From assembly GCF_024223415.1 (NCBI RefSeq), contig NZ_CP100500.1: a stretch of 64,000 nt of DNA; one strand, given 5' to 3'. Made by a program: the position numbers and the translations under genes. Source of the stretch: Escherichia coli (GTDB lineage: Bacteria > Pseudomonadota > Gammaproteobacteria > Enterobacterales > Enterobacteriaceae). This document shows positions 11,090 through 62,345 of the stretch, one piece after another. The notes beneath the pieces are model-generated. The model had not been told where the DNA came from and ran no database searches. It worked only from the letters and a program-made list of their open reading frames with translations. How positions within the stretch are numbered: the stretch's first letter is position 1; the number at the start of each line of letters is the position of its first letter.

Positions 11090-12208
11090 ATGCATAACCA
11101 GGCTCCAATTCAACGTAGAAAATCAACACGTATTTACGTTGGGAATGTGCCGATTGGCGATGGTGCTCCCATCGCCGTACAGTCCATGACCAATACGCGT
11201 ACGACAGATGTCGAAGCAACGGTCAATCAAATCAAGGCGCTGGAACGCGTTGGCGCTGATATCGTCCGTGTCTCCGTACCGACGATGGACGCGGCAGAAG
11301 CGTTCAAACTCATCAAACAGCAGGTTAACGTGCCGCTGGTGGCTGACATCCACTTCGACTATCGCATTGCGCTGAAAGTAGCGGAATACGGCGTCGATTG
11401 TCTGCGTATTAACCCTGGCAATATCGGTAATGAAGAGCGTATTCGCATGGTGGTTGACTGTGCGCGCGATAAAAACATTCCGATCCGTATTGGCGTTAAC
11501 GCCGGATCGCTGGAAAAAGATCTGCAAGAAAAGTATGGCGAACCGACGCCGCAGGCGTTGCTGGAATCCGCCATGCGCCATGTTGATCATCTCGATCGCC
11601 TGAACTTCGATCAGTTCAAAGTCAGCGTGAAAGCGTCTGACGTCTTCCTCGCTGTTGAGTCTTATCGTTTGCTGGCAAAACAAATCGATCAGCCGCTGCA
11701 TCTGGGGATCACCGAAGCGGGTGGCGCGCGCAGCGGGGCAGTAAAATCCGCCATTGGTTTAGGTCTGCTGCTGTCTGAAGGCATCGGCGACACGCTGCGC
11801 GTATCACTGGCGGCCGATCCGGTCGAAGAGATCAAAGTCGGTTTCGATATTTTGAAATCGCTGCGTATCCGTTCGCGAGGGATCAACTTCATCGCCTGCC
11901 CGACCTGTTCGCGTCAGGAATTTGATGTTATCGGTACGGTTAACGCGCTGGAGCAACGCCTGGAAGATATCATCACTCCGATGGACGTTTCGATTATCGG
12001 CTGCGTGGTGAATGGCCCAGGTGAGGCGCTGGTTTCTACACTCGGCGTCACCGGCGGCAACAAGAAAAGCGGCCTCTATGAAGATGGCGTGCGCAAAGAC
12101 CGTCTGGACAACAACGATATGATCGACCAGCTGGAAGCACGCATTCGTGCGAAAGCCAGTCAGCTGGACGAAGCGCGTCGAATTGACGTTCAGCAGGTTG
12201 AAAAATAA
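11090..12208 (+). CDS. ispG: 4-hydroxy-3-methylbut-2-enyl diphosphate synthase
   Basis: 372-aa ORF recognised as IspG (GcpE). Confidence 0.95.
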
Positions 12209-12318
12209 TAACGTGATGGGAAGCGCCTCGCTTCCCGTGTATGATTGAACCCGCATAGCTCCCGAAACATTGAGGGAAGCGTTGAGGGTTCATTTTTATA
12301 TTCAGAAAGAGAATAAAC

Positions 12319-56589: not shown

Positions 56590-56605
56590 ACGCAAACGTG
56601 TGCGT
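56590..56605 (+). promoter_or_regulatory. PurR operator (ACGCAAACGTGTGCGT) upstream of purC
   Basis: 16-bp near-palindrome matching the PurR box consensus, about 155 nt upstream of the purC ATG. Confidence 0.55.
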
Positions 56606-56651: not shown

Positions 56652-56706
<55 letters not shown>

Positions 56707-56758: not shown

Positions 56759-57472
56759 ATGCAAAAGCAAGCTGAGTTGTATCGTGGTAAAGCGAAAACC
56801 GTATACAGCACGGAAAACCCGGACCTGTTGGTGCTCGAATTCCGCAATGATACGTCAGCAGGGGATGGCGCGCGCATTGAGCAGTTTGATCGCAAAGGTA
56901 TGGTGAACAACAAGTTCAACTACTTCATTATGAGCAAACTGGCTGAAGCGGGTATCCCGACTCAAATGGAGCGTCTGCTCTCCGATACCGAATGTCTGGT
57001 GAAAAAGCTGGATATGGTACCGGTTGAGTGTGTCGTGCGTAACCGTGCTGCTGGCTCTCTGGTGAAACGTCTTGGAATCGAAGAAGGTATTGAGCTGAAC
57101 CCGCCGCTGTTCGATCTGTTCCTGAAAAACGACGCCATGCACGATCCGATGGTCAACGAATCTTACTGCGAAACCTTTGGCTGGGTAAGCAAAGAGAACC
57201 TGGCACGCATGAAAGAGCTGACCTACAAAGCGAACGACGTGCTGAAAAAACTGTTCGATGATGCTGGTCTGATTCTGGTCGACTTCAAGCTGGAGTTTGG
57301 TCTGTACAAAGGCGAAGTGGTACTGGGTGATGAGTTCTCCCCGGACGGTAGCCGCCTGTGGGACAAAGAAACGCTGGAGAAAATGGACAAAGACCGTTTC
57401 CGCCAGAGCCTCGGTGGCCTGATCGAGGCCTATGAAGCCGTCGCCCGCCGCCTGGGTGTACAGCTGGACTGA
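56759..57472 (+). CDS. purC: SAICAR synthetase
   Basis: 237-aa product from [16 protein letters not shown]. Confidence 0.95.
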
Positions 57473-57494
57473 TTTTTCTGGTTGCTTGTTTATT

Positions 57495-57516
57495 TAGCCG
57501 GAGGGTACTCCGGCTA
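57495..57516 (+). terminator. Hairpin downstream of purC (weak terminator candidate)
   Basis: Perfect 9-bp stem tagccggag / ctccggcta with a 4-nt loop; no clear U-tract follows. Confidence 0.35.
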
Positions 57517-57587
57517 AATGTCTTCGATACCCCCGCTACAATACTTCGCATTATCTCCCTTTGACAGGAAAGTAATAACAGGCCAAT

Positions 57588-57599
57588 ATGTATATACAT
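57588..57599 (+). promoter_or_regulatory. Perfect 12-bp palindrome ATGTATATACAT in the vapBC promoter region (putative VapB operator)
   Basis: Palindrome lies between a TTGACA hexamer (57561-57566) and the vapB Shine-Dalgarno/ATG. Confidence 0.4.
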
Positions 57600-57626
57600 G
57601 ACGTATATCCCAAAAAAGGGGGGGCT

Positions 57627-57854
57627 ATGGAAACTACTGTATTTTTAAGTAATCGCAGTCAGGCCGTCAGATTACCGAAAGCGGTCGCTCTGCCAGAGGA
57701 TGTTAAGAAAGTAGAAATTATTGCGATTGGTCGTACAAGAATCATCACTCCCGCCGGTGAGTCCTGGGACAGTTGGTTTGATGGCGAAAATGTGAGTGCG
57801 GATTTTATGGATATCCGTGATCAACCCGCAATGCAGGAAAGGGAATCATTCTGA
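57627..57854 (+). CDS. vapB: VapB antitoxin (AbrB/SpoVT-type DNA-binding fold)
   Basis: 75-aa product from METTVFLSNRSQAVRLPKAV with a strong GGGGG Shine-Dalgarno; stop overlaps the vapC start (TGATG). Confidence 0.8.
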   Translation: METTVFLSNRSQAVRLPKAVALPEDVKKVEIIAIGRTRIITPAGESWDSWFDGENVSADFMDIRDQPAMQERESF

Positions 57855-58252
57855 TGCTGAAATTCATGCTGGATACCAATATCTGTATTTTCACTATTAA
57901 GAATAAACCAGTACATGTCAGAGAGCGGTTTAACCTGAATTCTGGCCGGATGTGTATAAGTTCTGTAACATTGATGGAGCTTATCTATGGGGCAGAAAAA
58001 AGTCAGATGCCAGAACGCAATTTGGCGGTGATTGAAGGTTTCGTATCTCGTTTGGAAGTGCTTGATTATGATAGTGCTGCTGCGACGCATACTGGGCAAA
58101 TCAGGGCCGAGCTTGCCCGGCAGGGAAGGCCTGTTGGACCTTTTGACCAGATGATAGCGGGACATGCTCGCAGTCGCGGTTTGATTGTGGTTACCAACAA
58201 TACCCGAGAGTTTGAGCGAGTGGCGGGAATCAGACTAGAAGATTGGAGCTAA
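57854..58252 (+). CDS. vapC: VapC PIN-domain ribonuclease toxin
   Basis: 132-aa ORF starting MLKFMLDTNICIF with conserved acidic PIN residues; closely resembles the enteric VapC/MvpT family as I recall it. Confidence 0.85.
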   Translation: MLKFMLDTNICIFTIKNKPVHVRERFNLNSGRMCISSVTLMELIYGAEKSQMPERNLAVIEGFVSRLEVLDYDSAAATHTGQIRAELARQGRPVGPFDQMIAGHARSRGLIVVTNNTREFERVAGIRLEDWS

Positions 58253-58398
58253 CATTCTCTTTTACTTCTAACATTCGTAAATTATATAACGTGGCATGAA
58301 GCCTTAATTCCTCCGCCATTTCATCCCGTTTTCCTGTGGTAATCTTCCTCTGAACCACCTACGATCATTTCTATAATGAATATATTGTTGAGGTATCT

Positions 58399-59262
58399 AT
58401 GCGTTGGCAAGGGCGACGTGAAAGTGACAATGTTGAAGACAGGCGCAATAGCTCCGGCGGTCCGTCAATGGGCGGTCCCGGTTTCCGTCTGCCGAGCGGT
58501 AAAGGCGGGCTGATTTTACTGATAGTCGTGCTGGTTGCAGGCTACTATGGCGTTGATTTAACCGGGTTGATGACCGGGCAGCCGGTTTCTCAACAGCAAT
58601 CAACGCGGTCAATTAGCCCAAATGAAGACGAAGCCGCAAAATTCACCTCGGTGATTCTGGCAACCACGGAAGACACCTGGGGACAACAGTTCGAGAAGAT
58701 GGGTAAGACCTATCAGCAACCGAAGCTGGTCATGTACCGTGGAATGACGCGTACCGGATGCGGGGCGGGCCAGTCCATAATGGGGCCGTTCTATTGCCCG
58801 GCGGATGGCACGGTTTATATCGATCTCTCCTTCTATGATGACATGAAAGACAAACTTGGCGCGGATGGCGATTTTGCCCAAGGGTACGTTATCGCCCATG
58901 AAGTCGGTCATCATGTGCAGAAACTGTTAGGCATCGAGCCGAAAGTTCGTCAACTGCAACAAAACGCGACGCAGGCGGAAGTGAACCGCTTATCTGTGCG
59001 TATGGAACTCCAGGCCGACTGTTTTGCCGGTGTCTGGGGGCATAGTATGCAGCAGCAAGGCGTTCTGGAAACCGGCGATCTGGAAGAGGCGCTGAACGCT
59101 GCGCAGGCCATCGGCGATGACCGTTTACAACAGCAAAGTCAGGGGCGAGTAGTACCAGACAGTTTCACTCATGGCACTTCTCAGCAACGCTACAGCTGGT
59201 TTAAACGTGGTTTCGACAGCGGCGATCCGGCACAATGCAATACTTTTGGTAAAAGCATTTAA
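58399..59262 (+). CDS. ypfJ: Predicted zinc metalloprotease-family membrane protein YpfJ
   Basis: 287-aa ORF with HEVGHH motif and an N-terminal hydrophobic segment. Confidence 0.9.
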
Positions 59263-59276
59263 CTTCCGGGGCAGGG

Positions 59277-61292
59277 ATGGCTGAACTGACTGCGCTTCAC
59301 ACATTAACAGCGCAAATGAAACGTGAAGGGATCCGCCGCTTGCTGGTGTTGAGCGGGGAAGAGGGTTGGTGTTTTGATCATGCGCTTAAGTTACGTGATG
59401 CCTTATCTGGCGACTGGCTGTGGATTTCGCCGCAGCCAGATGCTGAAAACCACTGTTCTCCCTCGGCACTACAAACTTTACTTGGGCGCGAGTTCCGGCA
59501 TGCGGTATTCGACGCCCGCCACGGCTTTGATGCCGCTGCCTTTGCCGCACTTAGCGGAACGTTGAAAGCGGGAAGCTGGCTGGTTTTGTTACTCCCTGTA
59601 TGGGAAGAGTGGGAAAACCAACCTGATGCCGACTCGCTGCGCTGGAGTGATTGCCCTGACCCTATTGCGACGCCGCATTTTGTCCAGCATTTCAAACGCG
59701 TACTTACGGCGGATAACGACGCTATCCTCTGGCGGCAAAACCAGCCGTTCTCGTTGGCGCATTTTACTCCCCGTACTGACTGGCACCCCGCGACCGGCGC
59801 ACCACAACCAGAACAACAGCAACTCTTACAGCAGCTACTGACCATGCCGTCGGGCGTGGCAGCGGTAACTGCTGCGCGTGGGCGCGGTAAATCGGCGCTG
59901 GCAGGGCAACTCATTTCTCGTATTGCGGGTAGTGCGATTGTCACTGCGCCCGCAAAAGCGGCAACGGATGTACTGGCACAATTTGCGGGCGAGAAGTTTC
60001 GCTTTATTGCGCCGGATGCCTTGTTAGCCAGCGATGAGCAAGCCGACTGGCTGGTGGTCGATGAAGCCGCAGCCATACCTGCGCCGTTGTTGCATCAACT
60101 GGTATCGCGTTTTCCTCGAACGTTGTTAACCACTACGGTGCAGGGCTACGAAGGCACCGGACGTGGTTTTTTGCTGAAATTTTGCGCTCGCTTTCCGCAT
60201 TTACACCGTTTTGAACTGCAACAGCCGATCCGCTGGGCACAGGGATGCCCGCTGGAAAAAATGGTTAGTAATGCACTGGTTTTTGACGATGAAAACTTCA
60301 CCCATACACCACAAGGCAATATTGTCATTTCCGCATTTGAACAGACGTTATGGCGAATCGAGCCAGAAACGCCGTTAAAGGTTTATCAGTTATTGTCTGG
60401 TGCGCACTACCGGACTTCGCCGCTGGATTTACGCCGCATGATGGATGCACCAGGGCAACATTTTTTACAGGCGGCTGGCGAAAACGAGATTGCCGGAGCG
60501 CTGTGGCTGGTGGATGAGGGTGGATTATCTCAAGAACTCAGTCAGGCGGTATGGGCAGGTTTTCGTCGCCCGCGGGGTAATCTGGTGGCCCAGTCGCTGG
60601 CGGCGCACGGCAGCAATCCACTGGCGGCGACATTGCGTGGACGGCGGGTCAGCCGGATAGCAGTTCATCCGGCTCGTCAGCGGGAAGGCACAGGGCGGCA
60701 ACTTATTGCTGGTGCTTTGCAATATACGCAAGACCTCGACTATCTTTCGGTAAGTTTTGGTTACACCGGGGAGTTATGGCGTTTCTGGCAACGCTGCGGT
60801 TTTGTGCTGGTGCGAATGGGTAATCATCGTGAAGCCAGCAGCGGTTGCTATACGGCGATGGCGCTGTTACCGATGAGTGATGCGGGTAAACAGCTGGCTG
60901 AACGTGAGCATTACCGTTTACGTCGCGATGCGCAAGCTCTCGCGCAGTGGAATGGCGAAACACTCCCTGTTGATCCACTAAACAATGCCGTCCTTTCTGA
61001 CGACGACTGGCTTGAACTGGCCGGTTTTGCTTTCGCTCATCGTCCGCTATTAACGTCGTTAGGTTGCTTATTGCGTCTGCTACAAACCAGTGAACTGGCA
61101 TTACCGGCGCTGCGTGGGCGTTTACAGAAAAACGTCAGCGACGCGCAGTTATGTACCACACTTAAACTTTCAGGCCGCAAGATGTTACTGGTCCGTCAGC
61201 GGGAAGAGGCCGCGCATGCGCTGTTCGCACTTAATGATGTTCGCACTGAGCGTCTGCGCGATCGCATAACGCAATGGCAATTTTTTCACTGA
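59277..61292 (+). CDS. tmcA: tRNA(Met) cytidine acetyltransferase
   Basis: 671-aa ORF with helicase-like P-loop region (GRGKSA) and C-terminal GNAT-type domain. Confidence 0.9.
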   Translation: MAELTALHTLTAQMKREGIRRLLVLSGEEGWCFDHALKLRDALSGDWLWISPQPDAENHCSPSALQTLLGREFRHAVFDARHGFDAAAFAALSGTLKAGSWLVLLLPVWEEWENQPDADSLRWSDCPDPIATPHFVQHFKRVLTADNDAILWRQNQPFSLAHFTPRTDWHPATGAPQPEQQQLLQQLLTMPSGVAAVTAARGRGKSALAGQLISRIAGSAIVTAPAKAATDVLAQFAGEKFRFIAPDALLASDEQADWLVVDEAAAIPAPLLHQLVSRFPRTLLTTTVQGYEGTGRGFLLKFCARFPHLHRFELQQPIRWAQGCPLEKMVSNALVFDDENFTHTPQGNIVISAFEQTLWRIEPETPLKVYQLLSGAHYRTSPLDLRRMMDAPGQHFLQAAGENEIAGALWLVDEGGLSQELSQAVWAGFRRPRGNLVAQSLAAHGSNPLAATLRGRRVSRIAVHPARQREGTGRQLIAGALQYTQDLDYLSVSFGYTGELWRFWQRCGFVLVRMGNHREASSGCYTAMALLPMSDAGKQLAEREHYRLRRDAQALAQWNGETLPVDPLNNAVLSDDDWLELAGFAFAHRPLLTSLGCLLRLLQTSELALPALRGRLQKNVSDAQLCTTLKLSGRKMLLVRQREEAAHALFALNDVRTERLRDRITQWQFFH

Positions 61293-61365: not shown

Positions 61366-62064
61366 ATGAAACATGACCATTTTGTTGTTCAAAGCCCGGA
61401 TAAACCTGCGCAACAGTTGTTACTGCTTTTCCACGGTGTCGGGGATAACCCGGTGGCAATGGGGGAAATAGGCAGCTGGTTTGCACCGCTGTTTCCTGAT
61501 GCGCTGGTGGTGAGTGTCGGTGGCGCGGAGCCGAGCGGTAATCCGGCGGGGCGTCAGTGGTTTTCAGTGCAGGGTATTACGGAAGATAATCGCCAGGCGC
61601 GTGTGGATGCGATCATGCCGACGTTTATTGAAACGGTGCGCTACTGGCAGAAACAGAGCGGAGTAGGGGCTAACGCCACGGCGCTAATCGGTTTCTCTCA
61701 AGGCGCGATTATGGCGCTGGAGAGCATTAAAGCCGAACCGGGCCTTGCTTCGCGCGTCATTGCCTTTAACGGACGCTATGCGAGCCTGCCGGAAACCGCG
61801 TCTACAGCAACGACAATTCACCTGATTCATGGCGGTGAAGATCCGGTTATCGATCTGGCGCATGCGGTTGCGGCGCAGGAAGCGTTAATTAGTGCCGGTG
61901 GTGACGTGACGCTGGATATCGTGGAGGATTTAGGCCATGCGATCGACAATCGCAGTATGCAATTTGCCCTGGATCACTTGCGTTATACCATTCCGAAACA
62001 TTATTTCGACGAAGCGCTAAGCGGCGGTAAGCCTGGCGATGATGATGTGATTGAAATGATGTAA
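61366..62064 (+). CDS. ypfH: Esterase YpfH (alpha/beta hydrolase)
   Basis: 232-aa product from MKHDHFVVQSP with GFSQG nucleophile elbow. Confidence 0.9.
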   Translation: MKHDHFVVQSPDKPAQQLLLLFHGVGDNPVAMGEIGSWFAPLFPDALVVSVGGAEPSGNPAGRQWFSVQGITEDNRQARVDAIMPTFIETVRYWQKQSGVGANATALIGFSQGAIMALESIKAEPGLASRVIAFNGRYASLPETASTATTIHLIHGGEDPVIDLAHAVAAQEALISAGGDVTLDIVEDLGHAIDNRSMQFALDHLRYTIPKHYFDEALSGGKPGDDDVIEMM

Positions 62065-62070
62065 TAATAG

Positions 62071-62140
62071 CCGGGTAGGCCTGATAAGACCGTATCAGGC
62101 ATCATGGCCGGATGCGGCGTGAACGCCTTATCCGGCCACT
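62071..62140. repeat. BIME with two REP palindromic units between ypfH and ypfN
   Basis: gtaggcctgataagaccgtatcaggc and ggccggatgcggcgtgaacgccttatccggcc. Confidence 0.6.
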
Positions 62141-62144
62141 CAGC

Positions 62145-62345
62145 TTACTTCTTCGGTTGATCCTTTTTCGGCCAGTCGTCGTCATCGTCCCACTTATCGT
62201 TGAAATCACGATGCGGGGGAAGCTCCGGCTTGTTGGCGAGAAATTTCTTATGGTAGACGCGCTTGAGATCTTTAATCACGTTCAGCAGGACGCCTACCAA
62301 AAAGACAATCACCAGAATCCACCAATATTTAGCCAGCCAGTCCAT
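62145..62345 (-). CDS. ypfN: Small inner-membrane protein YpfN
   Basis: 66-aa product from [21 protein letters not shown]. Confidence 0.8.

Follow-up and report, generated by a model that had tools for sequence, protein, structure and literature searches.

VapBC modules whose toxin is a tRNA(fMet)-specific PIN-domain endonuclease are known from Shigella flexneri pMYSH6000/pWR100, where the system is also called MvpAT, and from Salmonella LT2. The Shigella and Salmonella VapC orthologues are described in PMC4105405, citing Winther & Gerdes 2011, as cleaving initiator tRNAfMet at A38/C39. TmcA is a tRNA-modifying enzyme that acetylates the wobble cytidine of elongator tRNAMet, yielding ac4C34, according to PMC7180214, citing Ikeuchi 2008. 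Chromosomal type II toxin-antitoxin (TA) presence/absence polymorphisms in E. coli provide a further frame of reference, as small two-gene cassettes that bring their own promoter into a core-gene spacer.

The window analysed here, a stretch of 64,000 nucleotides, is E. coli chromosomal DNA, 100% identical to that of NCTC9112 over 6 kb. The region of interest carries six genes in the order purC, vapB, vapC, ypfJ, tmcA and ypfH:

56759-57472, + strand: purC (SAICAR synthase), the core gene upstream of the cassette, from the RefSeq annotation of the identical record.
57627-57854, + strand: vapB, antitoxin of 75 aa (NF040493 TA_anti_VapB; annotated as WP_000450524.1).
57854-58252, + strand: vapC, PIN-domain toxin of 132 aa, tRNA(fMet)-specific subfamily (NF010285 and PIN domain).
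58399-59262, + strand: ypfJ, putative neutral zinc metallopeptidase, a core gene (NF050010, 380 bits; Pfam Zn_peptidase).
59277-61292, + strand: tmcA, tRNA(Met) cytidine(34) acetyltransferase (PDB 2ZPA and a four-domain Pfam architecture).
61366-62064, + strand: ypfH, esterase, which ends the co-oriented run ypfJ-tmcA-ypfH (NF008525, 429 bits; annotation).

The juxtaposition of vapC and tmcA noticed in the preliminary description is real: both genes lie on the + strand, ypfJ is the sole gene between them, and tmcA is the second gene downstream, starting 1,024 nt past the vapC stop codon, with gaps of 146 nt between vapC and ypfJ and 14 nt between ypfJ and tmcA. Both genes belong to characterised families and are annotated by RefSeq at this locus.

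VapC matches the NCBIfam model NF010285, 'tRNA(fMet)-specific endonuclease VapC' (PRK13725), over residues 1-132 of 132 with 291.3 bits against a curated cut-off of 143 bits, and its PIN domain is recognised by Pfam (77.4 bits). It shares 121 of 132 residues (91.7%) with Shigella VapC (PDB 3TND), retains all four catalytic acidic residues (D7, E42, D98 and E119), and is matched by seven PDB sequences named tRNA(fMet)-specific endonuclease VapC at E values from 7e-80 to 1e-72. At 92% identity, cleavage of tRNAfMet between A38 and C39 by this VapC is to be expected. VapB scores 113.8 bits against NF040493 (cut-off 60) and is borderline for Pfam MazE_antitoxin (23.8 versus a cut-off of 24.7). The vapB TGA and vapC ATG overlap (TGATG, 57852-57856), placing the antitoxin gene directly upstream and in translational coupling. 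The module thus resembles Shigella VapBC in its 132-aa toxin, its four catalytic acidic residues and its upstream vapB with overlapping stop and start codons. Unlike that plasmid-borne system, the copy in the window is chromosomal, occupies a fixed site between purC and ypfJ, and has a tRNAfMet-directed activity that is predicted from homology.

TmcA aligns end to end with E. coli YpfI/TmcA (PDB 2ZPA; residues 1-671 on 1-671, 1492.9 bits), and its TmcA_N, RecD-like helicase, GNAT and tRNA-binding domains (PF08351, PF05127, PF13718 and PF17176) all exceed their cut-offs. Its only NCBIfam match is a haloarchaeal equivalog (244.6 versus a cut-off of 700), which is uninformative for the bacterial enzyme. 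The protein shares with K-12 TmcA the full-length match, the four-domain architecture and the ypfJ-tmcA-ypfH context, and differs from it in that the tmcA of the window is an allelic variant; given the literature on its orthologue, it probably forms ac4C34. As a separate observation, the 5' half of tmcA has a dN/dS of about 0.19, compared with 0.002 in its neighbours, making it an unusually variable core gene. The earlier statement that two tRNA-Met-directed functions are encoded side by side therefore holds for the identities of the proteins, but the two act on different molecules, VapC on initiator tRNAfMet and TmcA on elongator tRNAMet.

The vapBC genes lie within an accessory segment, here designated type B, which stands in place of about 68 bp of the K-12-type (type A) spacer between purC and ypfJ:

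57481-58306, + strand: accessory type B segment with vapBC, about 0.8 kb, with a fuzzy right boundary at about 58290-58306.

Its borders were obtained by aligning the window with six type A loci (L083-L088) and with TR01, an empty site from O157:H7. The vapBC-specific DNA is confined to the stretch from the purC stop to the ypfJ start and interrupts no gene, so the site is intergenic, as had been proposed. The term insertion fits less well, since a segment was replaced: about 0.8 kb took the place of about 68 bp, and one 3' hairpin that of another. The hairpin of type A spacers, in the corresponding position, folds at -26.5 kcal/mol. A repeat search of the segment found no terminal inverted repeats and no spanning target duplication as mobile-element signatures.

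The two alleles divide the species. Among 5426 complete E. coli genomes, 1614 (about 30%) have vapBC at the purC-ypfJ locus and 3807 (about 70%) have the type A spacer. L003 and L004, two Escherichia lineages that have diverged from the window to 92-94% nucleotide identity, have type B as well; because these were found through their VapC, they carry an ascertainment bias with regard to the polarity of A versus B. The segment replacement is ancient, not recent. Clean loss of vapBC was seen in one of about 1618 type B alleles, as a TR01-type scar in a single genome. The empty TR01 site keeps only the left hairpin arm, and had suggested that all strains without vapBC are deletion derivatives, an idea ruled out by six further empty loci that carry the unrelated spacer of about 68 bp with its own hairpin (type A). 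Three short alleles (BS-04, HH45 and HH97) likewise looked at first like independent deletions; BS-04 and HH45 were read here, and the short alleles were not counted as real losses because the region in these two is garbled and homopolymer-rich, as is typical of assembly error. Like other intergenic TA cassettes of E. coli, the module is thus confined to a subset of strains (30%) and rarely lost, and, unlike cassettes that arose by simple insertion, it replaced about 68 bp including the 3' hairpin and shows no mobile-element signatures.

The non-coding parts of the locus contain the following features:

57492-57519, + strand: hairpin with perfectly paired arms of 12-13 bp (ATTTAGCCGGAG / CTCCGGCTAAAT) around a 4-nt loop, shortly downstream of purC, from the repeat search.
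57561-57589, + strand: candidate vapBC promoter, with -35 TTGACA at 57561-57566, a 17-nt spacer and -10 CAATAT at 57584-57589, proposed from the sequence.
57588-57611, + strand: operator-like motifs, the palindrome ATGTATATACAT at 57588-57599 and ACGTATATCCC at 57601-57611.
58249-58257 (over the vapC stop codon) and 58268-58276, + strand: two copies of the 9-bp direct repeat CTAACATTC, from the repeat search.
58307-58398, + strand: ypfJ-proximal spacer common to all alleles, with a perfect -10 TATAAT at 58372-58377 and a weak -35.

The hairpin after purC folds at -24.9 kcal/mol (z = -4.7), lacks a U-tract behind it (57492-57519), and is retained in L004 with a conserved stem and a changed loop. 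The putative vapBC promoter at 57561-57589 was missed by the consensus scan because its -10 element matches at only 3 of 6 positions; its CCCTTTGACA recurs in oligo DNA III, which represents the Shigella operator (PMC3384007). The same oligonucleotide shares ACGTATATCCC with the window, the layout of the motifs parallels that of oligo DNA II, and nucleotide similarity to pWR100, a Shigella plasmid, sets in at about 57584. In their resemblance to the Shigella operator oligos, TTGACA, ACGTATATCCC and the palindrome may form an autoregulatory operator. The direct repeat CTAACATTC is conserved in L003 and L004; it was considered as a target-site duplication and rejected, as its copies flank 10 bp only and not the cassette. 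The TATAAT at 58372-58377, which was read directly from the bases and was not listed by the consensus scan, is also conserved in L003 and L004 and may serve as a promoter element for ypfJ. The 92 bp closest to ypfJ, TATAAT included, are identical in aligned alleles with and without vapBC.

Within E. coli, vapB and vapC together show dN of 0-0.007 and dS of 0.01-0.07, with a dN of 0 for vapB; both genes are under purifying selection, and their divergence is comparable in depth to that of purC and ypfJ (purC dN/dS about 0.002 across 13 E. coli loci). Close protein relatives are abundant on plasmids, at least 1183 of which encode a VapC 90-95% identical to that of the window, a count that rests on protein matches to VapC. 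At the DNA level, the window differs from the plasmid VapBC copies, being just 74-75% identical, and the similarity stops at the gene borders, covering the coding region and about 40 nt upstream. Because the similarity is this low and this confined, the chromosomal vapBC is regarded as an old autonomous unit.

The distribution of the neighbouring genes bears directly on the vapC-tmcA adjacency. The survey covered the surroundings of VapC relatives at 80 species-representative loci (identity of 58-86% in the 78 outside Escherichia), with flanks of up to 10 kb a side (1.30 Mb for the 78 loci, 55 of which have 5 kb or more on each side). VapB accompanies VapC in all 80, and tmcA, ypfJ or purC lie nearby only in the two Escherichia loci. 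In the 78 non-Escherichia species, neither tmcA, ypfJ or purC (0/78) nor a tRNA-Met gene (0/78) was found within up to 10 kb a side, and conservation or recurrence of the adjacency in independent lineages was accordingly seen in none of them. The exact VapC protein occurs in the purC-vapBC-ypfJ-tmcA context at 10 of 10 places among the matches listed (85 contigs read). Nor do the two genes track each other across genomes, tmcA being core (5425 of 5426 complete E. coli genomes) and vapBC accessory (1614 of 5426). A literature search found no paper linking VapC with TmcA or ypfJ, the search by the names tmcA and ypfJ being dominated by tMCAO stroke papers, and none joining ypfJ with purC. The adjacency is no greater than chance, a single lineage-specific arrangement at one locus in Escherichia only, which indicates a historical accident of neighbourhood and not a functional pairing. 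The original judgement that it was most likely coincidental, given an intergenic site, agrees with every line of evidence: intergenic position, core versus accessory status, restriction to Escherichia, plasmid copies and literature. The stable inheritance of the arrangement is expected for an addictive module, and would also fit a selected one.

A transcriptional coupling of the two functions would require that VapB is degraded under stress, that the vapBC promoter is derepressed, and that read-through enters ypfJ-tmcA-ypfH, so that TmcA and YpfJ rise while VapC cuts initiator tRNA, as a lineage-specific regulatory wiring. The layout would permit this, as all genes are co-oriented across gaps of 146 nt and 14 nt, and, counted from the putative start site, the cassette exchanges the sequence ahead of ypfJ from about -79. 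A terminator scan of the + strand (57485-59985) gave no terminator-like site, and the fold of 58250-58398 contains no hairpin with a U-tract behind it. With no intrinsic terminator predicted by scan or fold on the + strand between vapC and tmcA, vapBC transcripts could run into ypfJ-tmcA. Some physical read-through from vapBC may well take place, and the doubt concerns any selected function. Because the 70% of E. coli without vapBC keep ypfJ-tmcA intact, vapBC is not required for tmcA expression; moreover, vapBC has a putative promoter of its own, the ypfJ-proximal TATAAT region is unchanged between alleles, the vapBC promoters of the tRNA(fMet)-specific family are autorepressed (PMC3384007), and the adjacency is not conserved elsewhere. 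Literature and homology point to an absence of regulatory coupling, whose presence we consider very unlikely.

A biochemical interplay can also be envisaged, in which ac4C34 serves as an anti-determinant protecting elongator tRNAMet from VapC, or tunes the elongator when the initiator is depleted, and selection would keep the toxin beside the modifier. Both enzymes recognise anticodon stem-loops of tRNAs with a CAU anticodon (PMC4105405 and PMC7180214), and the literature searched contained no test of a role of position 34 in discrimination by VapC. Against this, cleavage at 38/39 and acetylation at 34 concern different tRNA species, tmcA alleles show free variation whether or not vapBC is there, and close relatives of VapC work when plasmid-borne and in numerous species that have no tmcA linked to them. 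Several VapC-bearing genera, such as Pseudomonas and Rhizobium, are not known to possess TmcA. Because tmcA is core, linkage would also be unnecessary for any such interplay, which we regard as extremely improbable. A combined reading, in which read-through into ypfJ-tmcA, an ac4C34-defined VapC target, or both, create a strain-specific, stress-responsive toxin-modifier pair in about 30% of E. coli, appears very improbable; if true, the coupling would illustrate neatly how a TA cassette can rewire the expression of a tRNA-modification gene.

By far the most probable explanation is that an intact, self-contained vapBC resides in an accessory segment, that its proximity to tmcA reflects the site of fixation, and that the two functions are uncoupled. 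On this explanation, the segment of about 0.8 kb between core purC and ypfJ holds an intact chromosomal type II TA module in which VapB, through its AbrB/SpoVT-type N-terminal domain, would bind and neutralise VapC, and the VapBC complex would repress its own promoter, both by homology to the Shigella and Salmonella systems. Free VapC, as a Mg2+-dependent PIN endonuclease, would block translation initiation by cutting initiator tRNAfMet between A38 and C39. The downstream ypfJ-tmcA-ypfH genes are universal E. coli housekeeping genes, with TmcA presumably acetylating C34 of elongator tRNAMet, and the cassette probably became fixed two genes from tmcA in an Escherichia ancestor.

The juxtaposition of vapC and tmcA matters little in itself, as nothing detectable points to a functional link between them. 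What the comparison does describe is a purC-ypfJ spacer with two long-standing allelic forms in E. coli: 30% of genomes have vapBC there and 70% lack it, and a different hairpin follows purC in each form. The chromosomal vapBC is an ancient lineage that selection has maintained, separate from the mvpAT copies on plasmids.

The window is a piece of the E. coli chromosome, and the 6 kb surrounding vapC and tmcA are 100% identical to strain NCTC9112. Gene order on the + strand is dapA, bamC, purC, vapB, vapC, ypfJ, tmcA and ypfH; as the preliminary description had it, tmcA is the second gene 3′ of vapC, and the limits of the span it singled out coincide with the vapC start and the tmcA stop.

Features of the purC-ypfH region (window coordinates)
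56759-57472, + strand: purC
57481 to about 58306 (about 0.8 kb): type B segment, the window's allele of the purC-ypfJ spacer, carrying vapB and vapC
57492-57519: perfect hairpin right after purC in type B (-24.9 kcal/mol, z = -4.7)
57561: TTGACA of a candidate vapBC promoter, followed by a 17-nt spacer and CAATAT (direct sequence)
57627-57854, + strand: vapB antitoxin gene, its stop codon overlapping the vapC start (TGATG)
57854-58252, + strand: vapC toxin gene
58399-59262, + strand: ypfJ
59277-61292, + strand: tmcA
61366-62064, + strand: ypfH

The 64-kb window contains no tRNA gene, and the small RNA sroE (12208-12299, 114.6 bits) is its sole Rfam match at gathering threshold. A putative, near-consensus PurR operator (ACGCAAACGTGTGCGT, 56590-56605) was read directly from the sequence upstream of purC. 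REP-type palindromic elements (GCCGGATGCGGCGTGAACGCCTTATCCGGCC and relatives) occupy the bamC/purC gap (56655-56695) and the ypfH/ypfN gap (62070-62145), and they may be the cause of the several match places per genome in the 6-kb identity search; the ypfH-ypfN spacer also has a 29-bp indel between strains and a 48-nt gap relative to strain E69.

VapC matches the NCBIfam model NF010285, "tRNA(fMet)-specific endonuclease VapC", with 291 bits (cut-off 143) over all 132 residues, contains a PIN domain, matches seven solved VapC sequences (E = 7e-80 to 1e-72), is identical to Shigella VapC at 121 of 132 residues, and keeps all four catalytic acidic residues (D7, E42, D98 and E119), while VapB matches the VapB antitoxin family with 114 bits. 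TmcA matches the crystal structure of E. coli YpfI/TmcA (2ZPA) over its full length (1493 bits) and comprises TmcA_N, helicase, GNAT and tRNA-binding domains. According to a passage in PMC4105405 (citing Winther & Gerdes 2011), enteric VapC cuts initiator tRNAfMet between A38 and C39; a passage in PMC7180214 (citing Ikeuchi 2008) describes acetylation of the wobble cytidine by TmcA, preventing misreading. These family and structure matches, with the published activities, indicate that both functional labels in the phrase "two tRNA-Met-directed functions" are right, but the predicted substrates are two different tRNAs.

Across 5426 genomes, tmcA is present in 5425 and vapBC in 30%, with no co-occurrence. 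The exact VapC protein is seen only in the purC-vapBC-ypfJ-tmcA context (10 of the 10 places listed; 85 contigs read), which points to a single historical arrangement behind the adjacency. A survey of 100,044 species, each represented by one genome, yielded 80 loci with a VapC relative, and tmcA, ypfJ or purC lies near it only at the two Escherichia loci. At the 78 non-Escherichia loci (VapC 58-86% identity; flanks totalling 1.30 Mb, 55 loci having 5 kb or more on each side), none of the three genes is found nearby, nor does any tRNA-Met gene occur in the flanks; about 16 of these loci belong to Enterobacterales, which presumably have tmcA elsewhere in the genome. Nothing linking VapC to TmcA or ypfJ was found in the literature, where the two co-mentions are incidental, and a conceivable biochemical interplay in which ac4C34 would act as an anti-determinant against VapC finds no support. 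As a rough estimate, assuming about ten E. coli loci that act directly on Met-tRNA, a random intergenic landing would fall within two genes of one with a chance near 1%, and far more often when the category is chosen post hoc. The absence of co-occurrence, the single context, the 78 other loci and the literature thus all support the earlier view of the adjacency as coincidental.

The purC-ypfJ spacer has three states among the E. coli genomes compared: type B, type A and type C. Among 5426 complete genomes, 1614 carry type B, 3807 type A and 4 another allele (TR01 and three short alleles). In type A (K-12 and most strains), the same place holds a stretch of about 68 bp unrelated to type B, with its own hairpin (-26.5 kcal/mol; 2131-2157 in the type-A locus L083). 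The two hairpins differ, each being strong and 10-20 nt past the purC stop codon; both lack a U-tract downstream and may be mRNA 3′-end stabilizers rather than intrinsic terminators. Every allele shares the ypfJ-proximal 92 bp, among them a perfect TATAAT (58372-58377). In type B, the 9-bp sequence CTAACATTC is directly repeated (58249-58276): its two copies lie 19 bp apart, the first over the vapC stop codon, and are also kept in the diverged loci L003 and L004.

Since a consensus scan of the + strand from the purC hairpin region to 59985 finds no terminator-like site, and the folded vapC-ypfJ spacer has no hairpin with a U-tract, some transcripts started at the vapBC promoter may continue into ypfJ-tmcA. 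Three points speak against such read-through having a selected role: the cassette is absent from 70% of strains, the ypfJ-proximal region is the same in all alleles, and the vapBC promoter family is autorepressed. Downstream of the candidate promoter lie the palindrome ATGTATATACAT and a ACGTATATCCC motif, both of which appear to be shared with operator oligos published for Shigella VapBC.

At least 1183 plasmids carry an mvpAT-type VapC at 90-95% protein identity. Judged by sequence, chromosomal vapBC is not a recent plasmid insertion, because plasmid and chromosomal DNA are just 74-75% identical and the likeness ends at the gene borders. Within E. coli, vapB and vapC show synonymous differences of 0.01-0.07 (dN 0-0.007), a depth comparable with that of purC and ypfJ. 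L003 (NZ_JAATUR010000003.1) and L004 (CP089930.1, strain E69), picked up via their VapC and labelled E. coli, have vapBC at the same locus with identical junctions; their 92-94% nucleotide identity to the window over 6-9 kb suggests that they are probably other Escherichia lineages (cryptic clades), and their TmcA is about 90% identical in protein. A neighbor-joining tree built from the flanking DNA places the type-A flanks in a separate, long-branched clade, and type-B flanks group with TR01. The chromosomal purC-vapBC-ypfJ segment also turns up in two supposed plasmid records, NZ_CP019906.1 (29 kb, strain MDR_56) and NZ_OL790696.1 (4.8 Mb), both of which are probably chromosomal DNA that was mislabelled or misassembled.

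Type C, found only in TR01 (O157:H7; L002 2490-2510), is type B minus a clean 758 bp (window 57508-58265), a deletion that took the right arm of the purC hairpin along with vapBC, left half of the hairpin, and is joined at a TACT(T)C microhomology; this junction occurs in 1 of 5426 genomes. Because typical O157:H7 strains, unlike TR01, have the unrelated type-A spacer, the TR01 locus looks imported or atypical. Two of the three short alleles were sequenced (BS-04, L105 380-460; HH45, L106 380-520): garbled, homopolymer-rich sequence replaces vapBC in these complete genomes, which looks like long-read assembly error, so neither is counted as a real loss.

The 5′ half of tmcA (59277-60413) has a dN/dS of about 0.19 (against L002 and L083-L094), high for a core gene; bamC stands at 0.06, and purC and ypfJ at about 0.002. 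Almost all sampled strains have a TmcA protein accession of their own, PurC and YpfJ being nearly always identical, and tmcA variation bears no relation to vapBC presence. The vapBC of this locus is an ordinary, already annotated chromosomal TA cassette beside core genes.
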